IMG/VR virus record: IMGVR_UViG_2513237251_000001
Length of the DNA: 27,257 bases
Source of the DNA: a virus
Lineage: Duplodnaviria; Heunggongvirae; Uroviricota; Caudoviricetes
Direction: 5' to 3' (one strand)
The notes below the pieces were generated by a model. That model saw only the letters and a program-made list of their open reading frames with translations. It did not search any database and was not told the origin of the DNA. Numbering within the stretch: position 1 is the stretch's first letter; every line of letters begins with the position of its first letter. Position numbers and translations under genes: made by a program. Shown here one piece after another: positions 10,487-18,656 of this stretch.

Positions 10487-11230
10487 ATGGCAACTACATG
10501 TTCAGTTATATTGATTTTGGAGTCCTTTGATGTTTATTTCGGAAAAGAGAGTGTGTTTCTGGAGAGAGGTTCATCTGTACTTGTCGACTCTAGCTCTAGA
10601 GATTTTTTCCTGACATATCCTGAAAGAGTGATAGTGGCGGATTTTGGCGCTGAGTTTATTAGTCGCTATTTGAAAGCTAATAACTTAAGGGATATTTCTG
10701 ATTGTAGGGAATATCCATCTTATTTAAAAATAAACTTTGCTGACTTCAGTTTAATTAAAGGATTAATTAGTTGGGCTAATCACTGTGCTGAATACATAGA
10801 AATTTTTGATGAGTCTATTGCTTTTACATGTCTCTCTGCATTTTCTTCTGAAAAACAATTTGGAGTATTTCTGTTTGGATGTTTGAAAAGCACAGGGGCT
10901 AAAGTTAAAACGATTATTCATACGGATTTATCTGCACCATGGCGTCTTAAGGATATATCATCAAGATTATATCTCAGCGAAAGTTTACTAAAGAGGAAAT
11001 TGAAAGAAGAGGGGGTATCATTCAGTAAGATCATACTTGATGAGAGGATGCAAATGGCTGAATATTTACTCAGCACTCGTTGTTATCCTATTAGTAAAGT
11101 AGCTAAGGTCTGTGGTTATGCCAGTGTCTCATACTTTACTTATGTATTTAGACGTTATTTTGGTGTTTCTCCAAGTCAATACTCTCAGAGGAGTTCAGAA
11201 AGTAAAATTCTTACTCACCAGGGAATCTGA
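10487..11230 (+). CDS. AraC/XylS-family transcriptional regulator (AppY/EnvY/Rns-like)
   Basis: 247-aa AT-rich ORF with a C-terminal double-HTH AraC signature (...WRLKDISSRLYLSESLLKRKLKEEGVSFSKIILDERMQMAEYLL...CGYASVSYFTYVFRRYFGVSPSQY); SD GGGGGGA upstream. Confidence 0.8.
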   Translation: MATTCSVILILESFDVYFGKESVFLERGSSVLVDSSSRDFFLTYPERVIVADFGAEFISRYLKANNLRDISDCREYPSYLKINFADFSLIKGLISWANHCAEYIEIFDESIAFTCLSAFSSEKQFGVFLFGCLKSTGAKVKTIIHTDLSAPWRLKDISSRLYLSESLLKRKLKEEGVSFSKIILDERMQMAEYLLSTRCYPISKVAKVCGYASVSYFTYVFRRYFGVSPSQYSQRSSESKILTHQGI

Positions 11231-11984: not shown

Positions 11985-12030
11985 ATTCGTAATGCGAAGG
12001 TCGTAGGTTCGACTCCTATTATCGGCACCA
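11985..12030 (+). repeat. 46-bp direct repeat of the thrW 3' end (att core, distal junction of the first element)
   Basis: ATTCGTAATGCGAAGGTCGTAGGTTCGACTCCTATTATCGGCACCA is identical to thrW positions 1399-1444; the flank after CCA differs from that at 1445. Confidence 0.85.
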
Positions 12031-12529
12031 TCTCAACTTCCTCAAACGTCCGTATTAGTCCATAAAATCTCTGATTTATAACATTTTTTATTCTTTTAAG
12101 TCCATAGTAGTCCGTAACCATCCAGTAGAATCCGGTACTGAATGTGTATAGGATTGTGTATATGTTCCTGTTCGGTCTGGATTCCTATACACATGCCTTT
12201 AAACGATATGCAGATTCGCCGCGCTAAGCCTGAAGCTAAAGCCTATACATTTGGAGATGGGCTAGGGTTGTCATTACTTATAGAACCTAATGGAAGCAAG
12301 AGTTGGCGGTTCCGCTATCGCTATGCCGGCAAACCCAAAATGATCTCGCTTGGTGTTTACCCAACGATCACCCTTGCCGATGCTCGTTCCCGTCGTGATG
12401 AAGCTCGAAAACTTGTGGCAGAAGGAAAGAACCCTAGTGAGGTTCGAAAAGAGCAAAAGCTAGCTATGCAAACAGTGAACCGCCCCGGAAATCCTGGAGA
12501 CTAAACTCCCTGAGAAAGAGGTAAACAGG

Positions 12530-12856
12530 ATGACTAAAAATACTCGTTTTTCCCCCGAAGTCCGTCAGCGGGCGATTCGTATGGTTCTGGAAAGTCAGGA
12601 TGAATATGACTCACAGTGGGCGGCAATTTGTTCCATTGCCCCAAAGATTGGCTGTACGCCGGAGACTCTGCGTGTCTGGGTTCGCCAGCATGAGCGGGAT
12701 ACCGGGGGCGGTGATGGTGGGCTCACCAGCGCTGAACGTCAGCGTCTGAAAGAGCTGGAACGTGAAAATCGTGAACTGCGCCGCAGTAACGATATCCTTC
12801 GCCAGGCTTCCGCTTATTTTGCGAAGGCGGAGTTCGACCGCCTCTGGAAAAAATGA
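12530..12856 (+). CDS. IS3-family transposase OrfA (HTH)
   Basis: 108-aa [26 protein letters not shown]... with a leucine-zipper-like C-terminus; matches IS629/IS1203 OrfA as I remember it. Confidence 0.85.
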
Positions 12857-13743
12857 TGCCACTGCTGGATAAGCTGCGTGAGCAGTACGGGGTCGGACCG
12901 GTATGCAGCGAACTGCATATTGCCCCGTCAACGTATTACCATTGTCAGCAACAGCGACATCATCCGGATAAACGCAGTGCCCGTGCGCAGCACGACGACT
13001 GGCTGAAGAGAGAGATACAGCGCGTATACGATGAAAATCATCAGGTGTACGGTGTGCGTAAAGTCTGGCGTCAGTTGTTACGGGAAGGAATCAGGGTGGC
13101 CAGATGTACAGTGGCACGTCTCATGGCGGTTATGGGACTTGCCGGTGTTCTCCGGGGTAAAAAGGTCCGTACGACCATCAGCCGGAAAGCCGTTGCCGCA
13201 GGCGACCGCGTAAACCGTCAGTTCGTGGCAGAACGACCTGACCAGCTGTGGGTGGCTGATTTTACTTACGTCAGCACATGGCAGGGCTTCGTCTATGTGG
13301 CGTTTATCATTGATGTGTTTGCCGGATACATCGTGGGGTGGCGGGTCTCATCGTCTATGGAAACGACATTCGTGCTGGATGCGCTGGAGCAGGCGTTGTG
13401 GGCCCGTCGTCCGTCTGGCACCATCCATCACAGCGATAAAGGCTCTCAGTATGTGTCACTAGCCTATACGGAGCGACTAAAAGAAGCCGGATTACTGGCA
13501 TCAACAGGGAGTACAGGCGACTCGTATGACAACGCGATGGCTGAGAGCATCAATGGTCTTTACAAAGCGGAGGTAATACACCGTAAGAGCTGGAAAAACC
13601 GTGCAGAAGTGGAACTGGCCACACTAACGTGGGTGGACTGGTATAACAATCGACGATTGCTGGGAAGGCTGGGCCATGCTCCTCCGGCAGAAGCAGAAAA
13701 AGCTTATTATGCTTCCATCGGAAACGATGATCTGGCAGCCTGA
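12853..13743 (+). CDS. IS3-family transposase OrfB (DDE integrase core)
   Basis: 296-aa ORF in the -1 frame relative to orfA, with ...WVADFTYV...[10 protein letters not shown]...[15 protein letters not shown]...; A6 run at the orfA/orfB overlap fits programmed -1 frameshifting. Confidence 0.85.
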
Positions 13744-14692
13744 GTTCACAGATAAAACACTCTCCAGGAAACCCGGGGCGGTTCAAACAGAGTCAGAGAA
13801 CGCCTTCGAAAAGATAGCCAGAGAGTGGCATCAACTTAAATCTGCTAAATGGTCGGCGGGATATGCATCAGACATCATGGAAGCGTTTAAGAACGACATT
13901 TTTCCTTATGTCGGAACAAGGCCTGTGGGAGAGATTAAACCGCTAGAGCTGCTGAACGTTCTGCGTAAAATTGAGAAACGTGGTGCGTTGGAGAAAATGC
14001 GCAAAGTGCGGCAGCGTTGCTCCGAAGTGTTTCGCTACGCAATTGCAACGGGTAGGGCGGAGTACAATCCTGCGGCTGATCTCTCCAGCGCTCTCGAAGT
14101 ACACCAATCCAATCATTTCCCATTCCTAAAAGCTGATGAGATACCTGATTTTCTACGTGCCTTAGAGGGTTACTCCGGGAGTAAGCTTGTCCAGATAGCC
14201 ACGAAATTACTGATGATTACGGGTGTGAGAACCATCGAATTACGCGCGGCATTATGGCAAGAATTTGATCTGGATAACGCTATTTGGGAAATTCCTGCTG
14301 AAAGGATGAAAATGCGTAGGCCACATCTTGTGCCCTTATCATCTCAAGCGGTAGATTTACTCAATGAACTCAAGATCATGACAGGGAACTATCGTTATGT
14401 TTTTCCAGGGCGGAACGATCCGAATAGGCCAATGAGCGAAGCGAGTATAAATCAAGCCATTAAGCGTATTGGGTATGGAGGAAAAGTCACTGGACATGGT
14501 TTTCGTCATACCCTTTCTACAATCCTGCATGAGCAAGGTTTTGAGAGTGCTTGGATTGAAATCCAGTTGGCTCATGTAGATAAAAATTCTATTAGGGGGA
14601 CTTATAACCATGCTCAATATTTTAGTGGAAGGAAGTCTATGATGGACTGGTACAGTAATTTGATATTTGAAAGACTAAAAAGGAGTTAATTT

Positions 14693-15109
14693 GTGTCTCA
14701 ACCACTTTCGGAAATATTGACATGGGATGATGAACAATGGGAGGTATTTGTCCATGATTGGCTTATTGTCTGTAAATCAGATGATTACCCGTGGAGCGAA
14801 CGTTTGGGAGGAGCTGGAGATAAAGGTAGAGACGTTGTTGGATATAAATCGGATCCTAACGTAGAAGGTTATTCTTGGGATAATTATCAATGCAAACTGT
14901 ACAAAAAAAGTTTAGGGTTCTCTGATGTTGTAGTTGAGTTTGGAAAACTTATCTATTTTACTCTGAATGGTGATTATCCCATCCCTCAGAAGTACTTTTT
15001 TGTGGCACCCTATGATTTATCTACTACATTTTCTAATTTATTGAAAAATAAAAACGAGCTTAAAAAAGCAGTCCTTGATTCATGGGATTCAGCAATTTCA
15101 AAAAAATAA
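14693..15109 (+). CDS. Mrr-like (PD-(D/E)xK type) restriction-endonuclease-domain protein; possible N-terminal part of a Lamassu LmuA-like effector
   Basis: 138-aa ORF, GTG start 7 nt after AGGAG, 3 bp after the integrase stop; motifs GGAGDKGRDVVGY and YQCKLYKK match the Mrr catalytic signature (D-G-x-D ... Q-x-K); ends inside an A7 tract. Confidence 0.55.
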   Translation: MSQPLSEILTWDDEQWEVFVHDWLIVCKSDDYPWSERLGGAGDKGRDVVGYKSDPNVEGYSWDNYQCKLYKKSLGFSDVVVEFGKLIYFTLNGDYPIPQKYFFVAPYDLSTTFSNLLKNKNELKKAVLDSWDSAISKK

Positions 15110-15699
15110 CTAAAAAGATTGATATTCCATTAGATGATGAAATAAAAAAATATATTGAGGATTTTGATTTTAGTATTTTTTACTCTCTACCCTTATCATT
15201 GATTTTAAATGATATTGCAAATACACACCTTTATTTTAAGTACTTTAACGAGCTGTATGTCGTGAGAATCCCTCCAAATGAAATTCCAACATACAATTCA
15301 AAAAAAGAGTCTGTATATGTTAATGCACTGCTTCAAGCCTATTCAGAGCATGGAAATAAAACTTATAGTTCTTTCTTAGAGCTTGATGATCCATACAGAC
15401 GACACTTTAATAATAGTAGAAATGATTTTTATTTTGCATCTTCGCTTGAGGTTTTTGTCCGCGAAGTATTTAAAGATGATGTATTCAAAGCATTGAAATG
15501 TTACATTTCATCTTCAATTGAACCCGTCTTTTATGAAGACCATAATTATGCATTTATTAGGTGTAATGCAGTCTTGAAGCAGGCTGTTCTGACACCAATT
15601 GCACATTCAGTACTATCAAAAATATGTGAAGCAAATGATAAAAAAGGAATATGCCATCATTTGGTTAATGATGGTGAAGTAATTTGGACGGTGAGATAA
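15082..15699 (+). CDS. hypothetical protein; would be the C-terminal part of the preceding ORF after a 1-nt shift in the A7 tract
   Basis: 205-aa AT-rich ORF overlapping the previous ORF by 28 nt in another frame; one extra A in 15095-15101 fuses the two into a ~335-aa protein. Confidence 0.5.
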   Translation: MGFSNFKKITKKIDIPLDDEIKKYIEDFDFSIFYSLPLSLILNDIANTHLYFKYFNELYVVRIPPNEIPTYNSKKESVYVNALLQAYSEHGNKTYSSFLELDDPYRRHFNNSRNDFYFASSLEVFVREVFKDDVFKALKCYISSSIEPVFYEDHNYAFIRCNAVLKQAVLTPIAHSVLSKICEANDKKGICHHLVNDGEVIWTVR

Positions 15700-16157
15700 T
15701 GGTTAGAATTTATAATTCAAGTTTAGAAGTGGCATGTCGAATGGCGAAAGTGCTCGTCGCTATTTATCCTTCTTCATTAAGCCTTGAACGGCTTATTTGT
15801 TTTGATTTTATTTTAGTAAATCTTAAGGATTTTTTACCTGAAGAGATTAGTCTTCATCCTCCAATACCCCGTAGAGATGCTCAGTTAGCCCTAAAACGAG
15901 AGATTGTTTTAGAATCATTGGCTTTGTTGCAAGGCTATGAACTAGCCTCAAAAATTTATACACATCGTGGTTTTGTATATAAAGCTTCTGAAAAAACATA
16001 TGCATTTACAAATTCTCTACATAATGAATATGTTGCGCAGATGGAGCATAATATAAATTTGGTGGTTAAGTTATATAGTGATATTCCTGATGAGCAGTTG
16101 CAATCAATTATAAAAAATAAAATTGGCAAATATGATATGGAATTTAATTATGAATGA
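15699..16157 (+). CDS. small hypothetical protein (LmuC/middle-component-like position)
   Basis: 152-aa ORF whose ATG overlaps the upstream stop (TAATG) and whose stop overlaps the next ATG (ATGAATGA), indicating translational coupling. Confidence 0.5.
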   Translation: MVRIYNSSLEVACRMAKVLVAIYPSSLSLERLICFDFILVNLKDFLPEEISLHPPIPRRDAQLALKREIVLESLALLQGYELASKIYTHRGFVYKASEKTYAFTNSLHNEYVAQMEHNINLVVKLYSDIPDEQLQSIIKNKIGKYDMEFNYE

Positions 16158-16782
16158 CAATTTTTTTACGTTCAGAAAAATAAAGGTAACCGGATTCAAT
16201 AAATTAGATGCTATAATTGAATTTGGTTCTAAATTGACTATTTTATATGGTGGTTCTGACTCTGGAAAAACATACATATATTATTTGATTCGATATTTAT
16301 TAGGGAGTGAAAAACTAAAAAATAAAGATATCGATCATGCTCAAGGTTATGATTTAGCCTATCTGGAATTTAATTTTCAAGGTAGGGTAATGACAATTGA
16401 GAGGTCTCTTCAGGATAGCGCCCATTACAGATTATATGATTCGAGCATTGAAAATGTTAGTGAAGCTAATCTGTTGATGGTTTTTTCCAAAAGTGCTTCG
16501 TCTAAAAAGAGTTTTTCATCATACTTTTATGGTAGGTTGAATTTCAAAGAGGCTAAAGTAAGAACAAACTTAAGTAATACTCTTCATAAATTTAATCTTA
16601 ATAATGTTTTTGAATTTTTTTGTATTGATGAATTAAGAGTGTTAACTGAGAAGTCGTTAATTCTTTCTGATATTCCTAGCGAGGAGACAAAAAGAAAGTC
16701 TGAATTTAAATTCCTTTTAACTCAGAGAGATGATACTAACTCCTTAGCAGAAAAACCAAATAAAAAAGCAAGATATTTTTAA
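16150..16782 (+). CDS. SMC/ABC-type ATPase, N-terminal Walker A segment (LmuB-like), ending at an in-frame TAA
   Basis: MNDNFFTFRKIKVTGFNKLDAIIEFGSKLTILYGGSDSGKTYIY has the RecF/RecN/SMC-like N-terminal layout with P-loop GGSDSGKT; the frame stays open after the TAA at 16780-16782. Confidence 0.55.
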   Translation: MNDNFFTFRKIKVTGFNKLDAIIEFGSKLTILYGGSDSGKTYIYYLIRYLLGSEKLKNKDIDHAQGYDLAYLEFNFQGRVMTIERSLQDSAHYRLYDSSIENVSEANLLMVFSKSASSKKSFSSYFYGRLNFKEAKVRTNLSNTLHKFNLNNVFEFFCIDELRVLTEKSLILSDIPSEETKRKSEFKFLLTQRDDTNSLAEKPNKKARYF

Positions 16783-16812
16783 AAAAATCAAATTGCAAAT
16801 ATTTATGAGGAA

Positions 16813-17403
16813 TTGAAAGCGCAATTAATTTATCCTGAATATGATCAAGTCATTGTTTCAAGAGAACTTGAGAAAGTAGAGCAAGATATTGAATCATCGA
16901 AAGATATATTGAAAGGTATTGTTGATGCACTTGATGATAAGAAGCAATTATTAAAAGAGTTAAGTGATGAATTATATTCAATCAGTGACAGGGAAAAATA
17001 CTTATCATTACTCATTGAAAGATTTAGTCTTCTTAAAGACCAATACTTTATAGATCTACAAAGAATAGATGTTGTATCACAGGCGAATTTCTATTTAAAT
17101 AATTTTGCAGATATTTATTGTGAGTTCTGTAATACACCGCAAAAAAAAGAAAATGAAATATCATATGATGATTGTTTTTTGTCGTGTAATGCAGAAAAAT
17201 TGAAAATCAAAAGCCAGCTGAAAGGATTAATTGAATCAATCGGATCTAATGTTCGCGAACATGAATTAATTATGTTAAGAAAAAATGATGTTAATGAAAT
17301 TTATCAATCAGAAAAAAGTGATTTTAAGACGTTAGAAGATAAAAATATAAAACAATACATTCATCTCTTGAATCACTTTATGAATATAAAGACAATCTTT
17401 TAA
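16813..17403 (+). CDS. coiled-coil segment of the same SMC/ABC-type ATPase (same frame as the preceding ORF)
   Basis: 196-aa ORF in the same frame as 16150..16782, separated only by the single TAA; E/K/L-rich heptad-like sequence as in SMC/Rad50 coiled-coil inserts; the annotated start is a TTG. Confidence 0.5.
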   Translation: MKAQLIYPEYDQVIVSRELEKVEQDIESSKDILKGIVDALDDKKQLLKELSDELYSISDREKYLSLLIERFSLLKDQYFIDLQRIDVVSQANFYLNNFADIYCEFCNTPQKKENEISYDDCFLSCNAEKLKIKSQLKGLIESIGSNVREHELIMLRKNDVNEIYQSEKSDFKTLEDKNIKQYIHLLNHFMNIKTIF

Positions 17404-17969
17404 TGGATCACACAAAACATAGCATTCTATCTTCATTACAAGATAAAGAAGATGATGTTGACGAACTTAAATACTCCGCCGAGGACTTTGACTCCTTAAC
17501 AGTAGCTGATTTGTATGATATAGAAATAGCGATGCAAGACTTTTTGAATGATATAAATTTTGAAAATTCTAAAGATAACAAAGTGCGATTTGACGAAGAT
17601 ACATATGACTTTAATATCAATGGGAAACGCCGAGGAATGTTTGGTAAAGGTACCCGTGCAGTAATGCATGCTATATTTACCATTTGCTTTGCGGAATTTT
17701 TATCAAGAAAAGGGAATCCATTCATTGGATTTGTTGTGCTTGATAGTCCATTAGTGACGCACTTTGATAAAGATAGAGGGGGTTCTCTATCGGATGTTAA
17801 TAGCGTCAGTCTCAGTGATTCATTTTATCACGCATTAATCAAAAGGGACTATAATTTCCAGATTGTAATTCTTGAGAATAAAGGTCCGACGTTCCAAATA
17901 AAAATTAATGATGCAAATAAAATCCATAACTTAAATAAGAATGGAAGCTCTGGTTTTTATCCTGTTTAA
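17403..17969 (+). CDS. C-terminal segment of SMC/ABC-type ATPase (Walker B-like FIGFVVLDSP)
   Basis: 188-aa ORF with ATG overlapping the previous stop (TAATG); GMFGKGTRAVMHAIFTICFAEF followed by FIGFVVLDSPLVTHFD resembles a signature/Walker B/H-loop region; the frame is open upstream to 17343. Confidence 0.5.
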   Translation: MDHTKHSILSSLQDKEDDVDELKYSAEDFDSLTVADLYDIEIAMQDFLNDINFENSKDNKVRFDEDTYDFNINGKRRGMFGKGTRAVMHAIFTICFAEFLSRKGNPFIGFVVLDSPLVTHFDKDRGGSLSDVNSVSLSDSFYHALIKRDYNFQIVILENKGPTFQIKINDANKIHNLNKNGSSGFYPV

Positions 17970-18378
17970 TACATTAAAAATATAACTGCTAATTGGGGTG
18001 CTCGAAATTATATTTCGTTTCGAGCGCTCAGTTCATTTCTAAATAATTTGCAAAATTATTTTGGGTACTTTCGCCTCTACACTTCCTTCGGGTGGTTCCA
18101 CAATAATGGATCTCACCGGCGTTTGATATTTTATAATCTAACCCCTTAGCGCGCGCAGCCCCCCACGCCTGCTCGCTTCGCTTAACAGACTGGTTTTCAT
18201 GCATTCCGCAAATCGTCTCAGAAGCCACCACACAAGGGCTTTCGCGTCAAAAATGGTGCATGAGAATCATGCGTTTTCATGCGCTATAGACATGCACTCA
18301 TGCGCTCTCAGGCCAGCCAGGGAAAAGGCGTAAAAAATCCCAGTACTGGACCGGGATTACGTGGGCTTTTTTTGCTAA

Positions 18379-18651
18379 TCAGACAGGAATTTGCTGACGG
18401 CTTGACAGCTTTGACGCGGAGCCATAGCGATTGAGAGTTTGCTGTTGTTTTTCCGGCATTTGTGCTTTCTCTGATTCCTGTTCATTGCGCCGGGGCTTCA
18501 TGATTATCGTATCCACACTTTCCAGTGCGGTAAATGTGTAGGAACATTCAAGATTCTGGCACTGATACCATGAGCGTTTAACCGATGGTGCTTCATAGGC
18601 GGAGGTTCTGGCGTGTGCCGTCGTACCGCATTCGGGACATTTAAGTGCCAT
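18379..18651 (-). CDS. Ogr/Delta-family zinc-finger late transcription activator
   Basis: 90-aa ORF MALKCPECGTTAHARTSAYEAPSVKRSWYQCQNLECSYTFTALESV with the C-x2-C...C-x4-C spacing and AHARTS/YQCQN motifs of P2 Ogr / P4 Delta. Confidence 0.85.
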   Translation of the reverse strand: MALKCPECGTTAHARTSAYEAPSVKRSWYQCQNLECSYTFTALESVDTIIMKPRRNEQESEKAQMPEKQQQTLNRYGSASKLSSRQQIPV

Positions 18652-18656
18652 TAATA

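Follow-up and report, generated by a model that had tools for sequence, protein, structure and literature searches.

Reading-frame breaks in a short Lamassu operon of the Escherichia coli O157:H7 satellite prophage Sp2: very probably inherited mutations of a decaying defence cassette

Why should the three genes of a defence cassette be cut into six open reading frames (ORFs), with every break at or next to a run of A or T? The question is raised by positions 14693-17969 of the viral record IMGVR_UViG_2513237251_000001 (IMG/VR), whose whole stretch of 27,257 nucleotides is referred to here as the window. The window matches E. coli O157:H7, and the cassette is a three-gene short Lamassu operon (equivalent to an ABC-three-component, or ABC-3C, operon) in the order lmuA-lmuC-lmuB, carried as cargo in the int-psu hotspot of the P4-like satellite prophage Sp2 (CP-933I). 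Positions 14650-18000 are 100% identical to strains Sakai (prophage Sp2, 'P4-like phage') and EDL933, and are found at an identity of at least 99% in 309 records from 308 of 5426 complete E. coli genomes. The original prediction, made from the sequence of the window, had placed all three frame breaks at A/T homopolymer tracts and offered sequencing error, slipped-strand inactivation or recent pseudogenisation of a costly system as explanations. Based on the comparisons described below, we conclude that the breaks are very probably real, inherited mutations of a dead Lamassu operon, that is, of an ordinary decaying pseudogene cluster, and neither sequencing errors nor a switch.

The identity of the operon is evident from domain models. 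Pfam scores above the gathering thresholds were obtained for CTD6 (PF20282, 7.7e-30) in the ORF 15082-15699 and for middle component 2 (MC2; PF20288, 6e-30) in the ORF 15684/15699-16157, and AAA_23, AAA_15 and SMC_N matched the ORF 16123-16782. PADLOC recognized the orthologues as LmuA (2e-87), LmuC (2.9e-36) and LmuB (3.4e-117, for an orthologue 87% identical), and the fragments in the window tile single PADLOC models end to end, every one of them still scoring on the LmuA or the LmuB model (E = 1e-21 to 1e-49). Together with homologue and fold matches, these results bear out the labels originally given to the ORFs ('Mrr-like', and N-terminus, coiled coil and C-terminus of an ATPase). The genes and gene fragments are the following.

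14693-15109, plus strand: lmuA 5' fragment, N-terminal Mrr-type PD-(D/E)xK domain; starts at GTG, preceded by the Shine-Dalgarno sequence AAGGAG, and is cut short by a premature TAA; positions 10-140 of 336 of PADLOC PDLC03852, E = 9e-41
15107-15699, plus strand: lmuA 3' fragment, linker and CTD6; the annotated ORF starts at ATG 15082 without a Shine-Dalgarno sequence; PADLOC LmuA positions 141-333, contiguous with the 5' fragment
15699-16157, plus strand: lmuC (ABC-3C middle component 2), intact, 152 amino acids, neither longer nor shorter than in any intact relative; the lmuA stop and the lmuC start overlap (TAATG)
16150-16782, plus strand: lmuB fragment 1, N-terminal ABC/SMC head carrying Walker A (GGSDSGKT) and terminated by a nonsense codon; positions 3-199 of 610 of PADLOC PDLC03863, 1.3e-49
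16783-17345, plus strand: lmuB fragment 2, coiled coil with the CxxC zinc hook CEFC; C324, C327 and C346 invariant; PADLOC LmuB positions 231-412
17346-17969, plus strand: lmuB fragment 3, end of the coiled coil and C-terminal head with Walker B FVVLDS; PADLOC LmuB positions 428-608, 5.1e-37; weak Pfam DUF3732 match

The LmuA effector is of Mrr type, with a PD-(D/E)xK nuclease domain joined to CTD6, the domain that docks the effector on LmuB/LmuC. Its motif GDxGxD...QCK is invariant in all 42 homologues compared, and three LmuA homologues carry Pfam Mrr_cat (PF04471). In sequence searches, neither LmuA nor LmuB had a significant match among PDB chains, and NCBIfam yielded no match either, so that a fold search was needed; with the AlphaFold2 model of a 68%-identical LmuA orthologue (pLDDT 93.8), Foldseek returned the solved LmuA structures 9nxx and 9hqx first, followed by Cap4, MspJI and FokI. 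LmuB has been defined as an SMC-like ABC ATPase of about 600 amino acids with a Walker A motif Gx4GK[ST], a Walker B motif hhhhD[QSTE] and a coiled coil in which a CxxC hook may or may not be present (PMC12663957), and the repaired LmuB of 606 amino acids fits this definition with the three motifs listed above. The middle component, an intact ORF, lies between effector and ATPase as expected of LmuC. By contrast, an LmuA that unites effector and docking domain in one polypeptide is obtained only after conceptual repair, both domains being present but split by a 1-nucleotide deletion, and no intact system was found: lmuA has one lesion and lmuB two, and the state is the same or worse in all 308 E. 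coli records. The three lesions, numbered along the sequence, are as follows.

15100-15106, plus strand: break (i), in lmuA, A7 run lacking one base as compared with the 8 bases of intact relatives, AAAGAAAA or CAATAAAA
16780-16782, plus strand: break (ii), in lmuB, TAA in place of an original TTA (Leu) after a T-to-A change at 16781, where T5 meets A7 in the tract 16776-16787 (ancestrally T6A6)
17341-17345, plus strand: break (iii), in lmuB, A5 run one base short (A6 in Proteus); a -1 deletion, the true reading going on in frame 0

The unbroken form of the operon is seen in its relatives. A repaired effector query retrieved more than 100 single-polypeptide homologues of about 330-380 amino acids with a coverage of at least 95%, and the repaired ATPase retrieved 26 LmuB homologues of 594-612 amino acids, each covering at least 97% of the repaired protein and including a 606-amino-acid protein of Proteus mirabilis (87% identical) and a protein of Pantoea alhagi (75%). 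Five related loci have continuous ORFs of 335, 152 and 606 codons. At the nucleotide level, the cassette is 89% identical to that of P. mirabilis and 79% identical to that of P. alhagi, both encoding proteins of just these lengths, and the Pantoea-type relatives (loci L005-L007) occupy the same int-psu position in a P4-like element. Aligning the 3.28-kb cassette with the intact loci gave exactly two insertions or deletions (indels), each of them one base missing from the window, at sites (i) and (iii); these are the two single-base deficits that emerge when tract lengths are compared with related genomes, as the original prediction had proposed. In the repaired frame, every segment on either side of each break has a ratio of nonsynonymous to synonymous substitution rates (dN/dS) of 0.05-0.14 against Proteus and Pantoea, and therefore every segment was coding in that frame for most of its history. 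The phage collection held no match to the cassette, and the plasmid collection only a duplicate O157 record, discussed below, and a 64%-identical Yersinia locus.

At break (i), the ORF 14693-15109 (frame 2) stops at the TAA at 15107-15109, directly 3' of the A7 run. As had been proposed, one extra A at the run fuses it to the next ORF, the one with CTD6, giving a frame of 335 codons whose translation aligns gap-free with homologues through the conserved W131...I139. The run itself lies at 15100-15106 rather than at the 15095-15101 given for it, and the stop codon follows the run instead of lying inside it. The 99 nucleotides around the site are identical in 307 of the 308 E. coli records, and the A8 allele occurs in none, all 308 being one difference away from an A8 query. 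A slipped-strand origin is plausible here: an A8 intermediate may have slipped, or else the base that interrupts the tract in relatives may have been deleted. A search of GTDB genomes for related loci found none with the protein P0001 alone and, with the alignment, only a 47%-identical Serratia locus, so that no closer intact relative settles the ancestral state at this site.

At break (iii), frame 0 is open from 17343 and frame 1 is open to 17403. The overlap of two open frames across 17343-17403, which had been pointed out from the sequence, is confirmed, and the lesion proper is the A5 run. After repair to A6, the site reads TLEDKKYKTIH, as compared with RLEGKKYKKIH in Proteus, and the Pantoea sequence at the site is CTGAAATAC. 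Again, the A6 allele is absent from the 308 E. coli records, each of which has one difference from an A6 query. A putative slipped-strand origin is supported at this site, firmly so for the change from A6 to A5. The annotated start of lmuB fragment 3, ATG 17403, has no upstream Shine-Dalgarno sequence, and it lies in an LLMD motif conserved in close relatives. The surrounding TAATG (17401-17405) resembles the genuine coupled boundaries of the operon and was considered as a true coupled gene boundary, but this was rejected, as Met 17403 is an internal residue in all close homologues and the overlap is coincidental.

Break (ii) is of a different kind. The ORFs 16123-16782 and 16813-17403 share one frame and are parted by the TAA at 16780-16782, in agreement with the original description; a T4A8 reading would indeed be open, as suggested there, but the ancestral sequence is T6A6, with TTA encoding Leu. 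This Leu is invariant in 8 homologues, and its codon is TTA in Proteus. Judged from these alignments, break (ii) is a T-to-A transversion (T6A6 to T5A7) and not slippage. All four typical O157:H7 strains that were aligned have TAA, as does the window. A 92-nucleotide query with the TTA allele matched nothing, probably because of low-complexity masking or seeding, and an offset query of 99 nucleotides was used: 298 of the 308 records do not match the TTA allele, which is kept in the other 10, namely O55:H7 strains, the sorbitol-fermenting O157 strain 493/89, and LSU61.

The cassette has 44 A/T runs of at least five bases, which make up 7.6% of its sequence; their density is about three times that found elsewhere in the window. 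The chance that both deletions would fall in such runs is low (p about 0.006), and it is lower still when two further polymorphic indel tracts, described below, are included (p about 3e-5); indeed, all indels seen fall in A runs of at least five bases. The association between indels and A/T runs is therefore real, and it is mechanistically expected. The two deletions would have arisen by slipped-strand mispairing, and the cassette (31% G+C over 14693-17969, versus 45% in the whole window), in which A/T runs per kb are about threefold more numerous than in the neighbouring DNA, appears mutationally fragile. The position of the nonsense substitution of break (ii) in a run is not informative, because 14% of all possible nonsense substitutions in the cassette are in or adjoin A/T runs. 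Slipped-strand inactivation thus fits break (iii), with A6 against A5, is plausible for break (i), where the tract of relatives is interrupted, and does not apply to break (ii).

The order of the lesions can be read along the series of strains. The annotations and sequences of O55:H7, 493/89 and LSU61, which we take to be early branches of the stepwise model leading from O55:H7 to O157:H7, have breaks (i) and (iii) and a longer first lmuB ORF. Because break (ii) is absent from these strains, it is later than the other two, a secondary mutation, restricted to typical O157:H7, in an lmuB that was already dead. Breaks (i) and (iii) are older than the split of O55:H7 and O157:H7, or arrived with the element. 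The pseudogenisation originally suspected is thus borne out, although not as a single recent event.

Decay has continued since. Two further A runs in the dead lmuB vary in length:

17141-17148, plus strand: A8 run, length polymorphic, with A7 in TW14359 and Rafaela_II; 69 of the 308 records differ from the window in the surrounding 99 nucleotides
17312-17317, plus strand: A6 run, with A5 in O55:H7 DEC5D and A7 in LSU61 and, independently, in ERL04-3476, where A7 leads to an immediate TGA

In the 99 nucleotides that span the second of these runs and break (iii), 18 of the 308 records differ. The additional base in LSU61 and ERL04-3476 was considered as a compensation for the deletion at site (iii), and was rejected because it creates the immediate TGA. 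Larger lesions are found as well. For example, IS1203 lies within the first lmuB fragment of three O157:H7 isolates, M1300706002, 6535NalR and 6535WT (locus L014, NZ_CP089270.1, locus positions 2283-3496), and a contig from the read archive (L015, Logan SRR7251010) has a 645-bp deletion of 16134-16778 that fuses lmuC to the middle of lmuB. The deletion ends in two similar A-rich stretches (an overlap of about 25 nucleotides in the BLAST pieces), which suggests that it was repeat-mediated. Comparison of the O55/O157 sequences gave 13 substitutions, of which 10 are nonsynonymous (one of them nonsense) and 3 synonymous; the resulting omega of about 0.83 is compatible with neutrality (p = 0.73), and its departure from the ratio seen between species is significant (Fisher p = 8e-4). 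On this count, decay since the O55/O157 split looks neutral.

The duplicate O157 record mentioned above, NZ_CP044147.1, is a plasmid record of 46.9 kb in which the cassette occurs again at 33270-36542, 99.9% identical and with 4 fewer bases, and its accession adjoins that of the O157 AR-0428 chromosome (NZ_CP044145.1). This copy is probably an assembly artefact with homopolymer errors and not a real plasmid copy.

Taken together, these observations fit a simple course of events. In Lamassu, LmuB2-LmuC holds monomeric LmuA via its C-terminal domain until the binding of DNA ends frees LmuA to form active nuclease tetramers, and LmuB Walker A mutants lose defence in the two Lamassu systems tested (PMC12663957). 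In the ancestor shared by O55:H7 and O157:H7, or earlier than the acquisition of the element, one base was lost at the run in lmuA that is now A7 and one from an A6 run in lmuB. Each of these deletions divides parts that have to belong to one chain: break (i) parts the LmuA nuclease from the domain that docks it, and break (iii) parts the Walker A half of LmuB from its Walker B half. Later, in typical O157:H7, the change from TTA to TAA added a stop to an already broken lmuB, and sublineages then acquired more A-tract indels, the IS1203 insertion and the 645-bp deletion; the operon would have drifted neutrally once it was inactive. With both proteins divided in this way, the system is predicted to be unable to work, and the cassette would provide no Lamassu-type defence today.

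Several points weigh against this reading. First, lmuC is intact and, in most strains, the fragments have no additional stops, and the fragments may have some residual or novel activity. Second, the relatives have an interrupted tract at site (i), so that pure homopolymer slippage there is plausible but less certain than at site (iii). Third, some of the tract variants that are seen in single long-read assemblies could be assembly errors, CP044147 being an example. Finally, the slippery heptamer followed by a stop at site (i), described next, could allow a trace of full-length LmuA.

This last point leads to an alternative in which the split of lmuA is regulatory, with -1 ribosomal frameshifting or transcriptional slippage on A_AAA_AAA_UAA giving some full-length LmuA. 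The zero frame at site (i), TCA AAA AAA TAA, does contain a canonical -1 slippery heptamer (A_AAA_AAA, of the form X_XXY_YYZ) with the stop immediately after it, a -1 shift yields exactly the SKKITKK of the repaired protein, and A-rich heptamers such as those of IS1 and dnaX are known to shift in E. coli. However, no downstream stimulatory structure is apparent, the fold of 15100-15190 having a free energy of -8.7 kcal/mol (z = 0.13), and the two-frame arrangement is absent from all intact relatives, which have one continuous ORF. Moreover, lmuB, which is needed for the activation of LmuA, is broken twice at sites that are not slippery (site (iii) reads GAT AAA AAT), and decay is neutral-like. 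We therefore regard recoding at site (i) as unlikely, with little chance of being the explanation of the split, and in any case it would be without consequence for defence.

A second alternative is a phase-variable contingency locus, in which reversible slippage at the A-tracts would alternately activate and silence an abortive-infection system that is costly. Both frameshifts lie in poly-A runs, the lmuB runs at 17141-17148 and 17312-17317 vary among strains (once homoplasically), and Lamassu is toxic when over-expressed (PMC12663957), all of which would suit such a switch. Yet an ON allele was seen at neither site in the 308 genomes, and two independent OFF lesions and a nonsense codon would all need to revert. 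The tracts are also short (A7 and A5) and are not kept as homopolymers in the intact relatives, which have AAAGAAAA or CAATAAAA at site (i) and, in Pantoea, CTGAAATAC at site (iii). In addition, the length variants only add frameshifts, as does the +1 of LSU61 with its TGA, and the within-clade omega is about 0.8. Switching is, accordingly, very improbable.

It is more improbable again, to an extent that we would call extreme, that the six ORFs are genuinely separate functional genes, i.e., a split-gene Lamassu whose halves reassemble. Rad50-type ABC heads can be put together again in vitro from their N- and C-terminal halves, PGAP annotates separate coding sequences (CDSs), and the junction at 17401-17405 resembles the coupling overlap at the real lmuA/lmuC boundary. 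However, these boundaries occur in none of more than 150 homologues, the annotated starts of the fragments lack Shine-Dalgarno sequences and that at 17403 is an internal residue, the boundaries vary among strains of the same clone, and more frameshifts, an insertion sequence (IS) and a deletion are tolerated. The original prediction had held that confirmed tract lengths together with intact orthologues sharing the ORF boundaries would mean separate genes; the tract lengths are confirmed in independent assemblies, but the intact orthologues lack these boundaries.

Sequencing or assembly error in low-complexity DNA, with the genes truly intact, has virtually no chance of being right: although homopolymers of A or T, at or beside which the breaks lie, are error-prone in 454 and long-read sequencing, and the duplicate 'plasmid' copy is short of bases, about 300 independent complete genomes show the same states, among them the agreeing reference genomes of Sakai and EDL933, with neither A8 nor A6 in any of the 308, and break (ii) is a substitution whose TTA form is retained only in a phylogenetically coherent set of 10.

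If the operon is, as we conclude, a decaying pseudogene cluster, one may ask what its loss meant for the lineage. Lamassu senses DNA ends and phage replication origins and strongly restricts lambda-vir, and, as DdmABC, it removes plasmids. It is conceivable, although we consider it doubtful, that loss of Lamassu in the O55:H7/O157:H7 ancestor was selected, or was permissive for the later lambdoid prophages (including Stx prophages) and pO157, with the heptamer perhaps allowing trace amounts of full-length nuclease.

The surroundings of the cassette place it in a known context. It is flanked by a P4-type integrase on one side and by delta/psu/sid genes on the other, at the thrW site, and the int-psu region between integrase and delta/psu/sid is a defence hotspot of P4-like satellites (Rousset et al., 2022, PMC9122126). 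The tRNA gene thrW, tRNA-Thr(CGU), lies at 1369-1444, and its last 30 nucleotides recur at 12002-12031, at the left end of the P4-like element; the repeat is an att duplication, with another element (a lambda-like Sp1 remnant in Sakai) between the copies. An ORF for an AraC-family regulator (10487-11230, 247 amino acids; Sakai ECs_0287, 'transcription regulator') lies in a patch of low G+C (33-39%) upstream of an IS remnant. The P4-type integrase region (12142-14689) is interrupted by an IS3-family element at about 12476-13783, leaving an arm-binding ORF at 12142-12504, IS ORFs at 12530-12856 (HTH_Tnp_1) and 12853-13743 (rve), and the remainder of the integrase from 13676. The integrase is whole (393 amino acids) in Sakai and EDL933 and is annotated as N-terminally truncated in TW14359 and ERL04-3476; with the integrase split, the satellite is probably immobilised in the source strain of the window. 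The P4-like backbone at 18379-24593 looks intact while the defence cargo is dead, with delta (90 amino acids), psu (183), sid (250), alpA, ash (185) and a primase-helicase (796). Just past the P4 primase gene there is a second block of low G+C (28-36%) at 24601-26400, with a minus-strand ORF at 24726-25682 (318 amino acids, no Pfam match); this block may be additional cargo, accessory or defensive, at the opposite end of the satellite.

The Lamassu/ABC-3C family and the P4 hotspot are already well described, and the locus is partly annotated: RefSeq marks ECs_0293 of Sakai as an 'AAA family ATPase' pseudogene and PGAP names the CTD6 and MC2 proteins, whereas the lmuA frameshift is without annotation. 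Our literature search found no paper on the cassette locus. Rousset et al. (2022) found a system of O157:H7 FRIK944 to be inactive; this result was considered as experimental data on the cassette and was set aside, as that system is a different cassette, with a cytidine deaminase. The exact lesions, their order along the series from O55 to O157, and the ongoing decay in tract length are small additions. They have some practical bearing, since PGAP gives six separate CDSs in most O157:H7 genomes and the fragments still score on PADLOC, so that defence censuses can count a dead system. For example, a 'common Lamassu-family' system has been predicted in O157:H7 strains in a 2026 preprint (10.64898/2026.07.23.740414); if that call should refer to the cassette locus, it would be a false positive for function. 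Further, the lesion order along O55:H7, 493/89 and LSU61, and typical O157:H7 offers a dated example of defence decay in place, and the locus illustrates how AT-rich, horizontally acquired cargo is mutationally fragile at A/T runs, while the current understanding of Lamassu is unchanged.

Compared with known systems, the cassette has the composition of ABC-3C systems, reportedly described by Krishnan, Burroughs, Iyer and Aravind in 2020 and said to be the source of Pfam CTD6 and MC2: the effector with its C-terminal domain, middle component and ABC ATPase are the same, and the architecture is equal after frame repair, except that the copy here is inactivated. Homopolymer contingency loci are known from phase-variable restriction-modification and surface genes of Haemophilus, Neisseria, Campylobacter and Helicobacter. 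The cassette shares with them frameshifts at mononucleotide runs in a defence gene and tract-length polymorphism among strains, but it differs in having no ON alleles, short and unconserved tracts, several independent lesions and neutral evolution, which points to decay and not switching. Like other defence cargo of P4-satellite hotspots (PMC9122126; PMC13586616), it occupies the same place; here, however, it has decayed in situ and has been kept in about 300 sequenced genomes. Defence pseudogenes are rare in P4 hotspots according to a 2026 survey (PMC13586616), and a decayed Lamassu in such a hotspot is thus an uncommon but unsurprising case. The closest counterpart is short Lamassu (type II), as represented by DdmABC/Lamassu Vc-Cap4 of Vibrio cholerae and LmuACB of Salmonella (PMC12663957; PDB 9nxx, 9hqx), with which the cassette shares the gene order, an LmuB of about 600 amino acids with Walker A Gx4GKT, Walker B hhhhDS and a CxxC hook, a small LmuC, and an LmuA made of nuclease and docking domain. 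It differs from the solved systems in that its effector is of Mrr type with CTD6 and MC2 partners instead of Cap4, in having no significant sequence match to them, and in that lmuA and lmuB are pseudogenes here.

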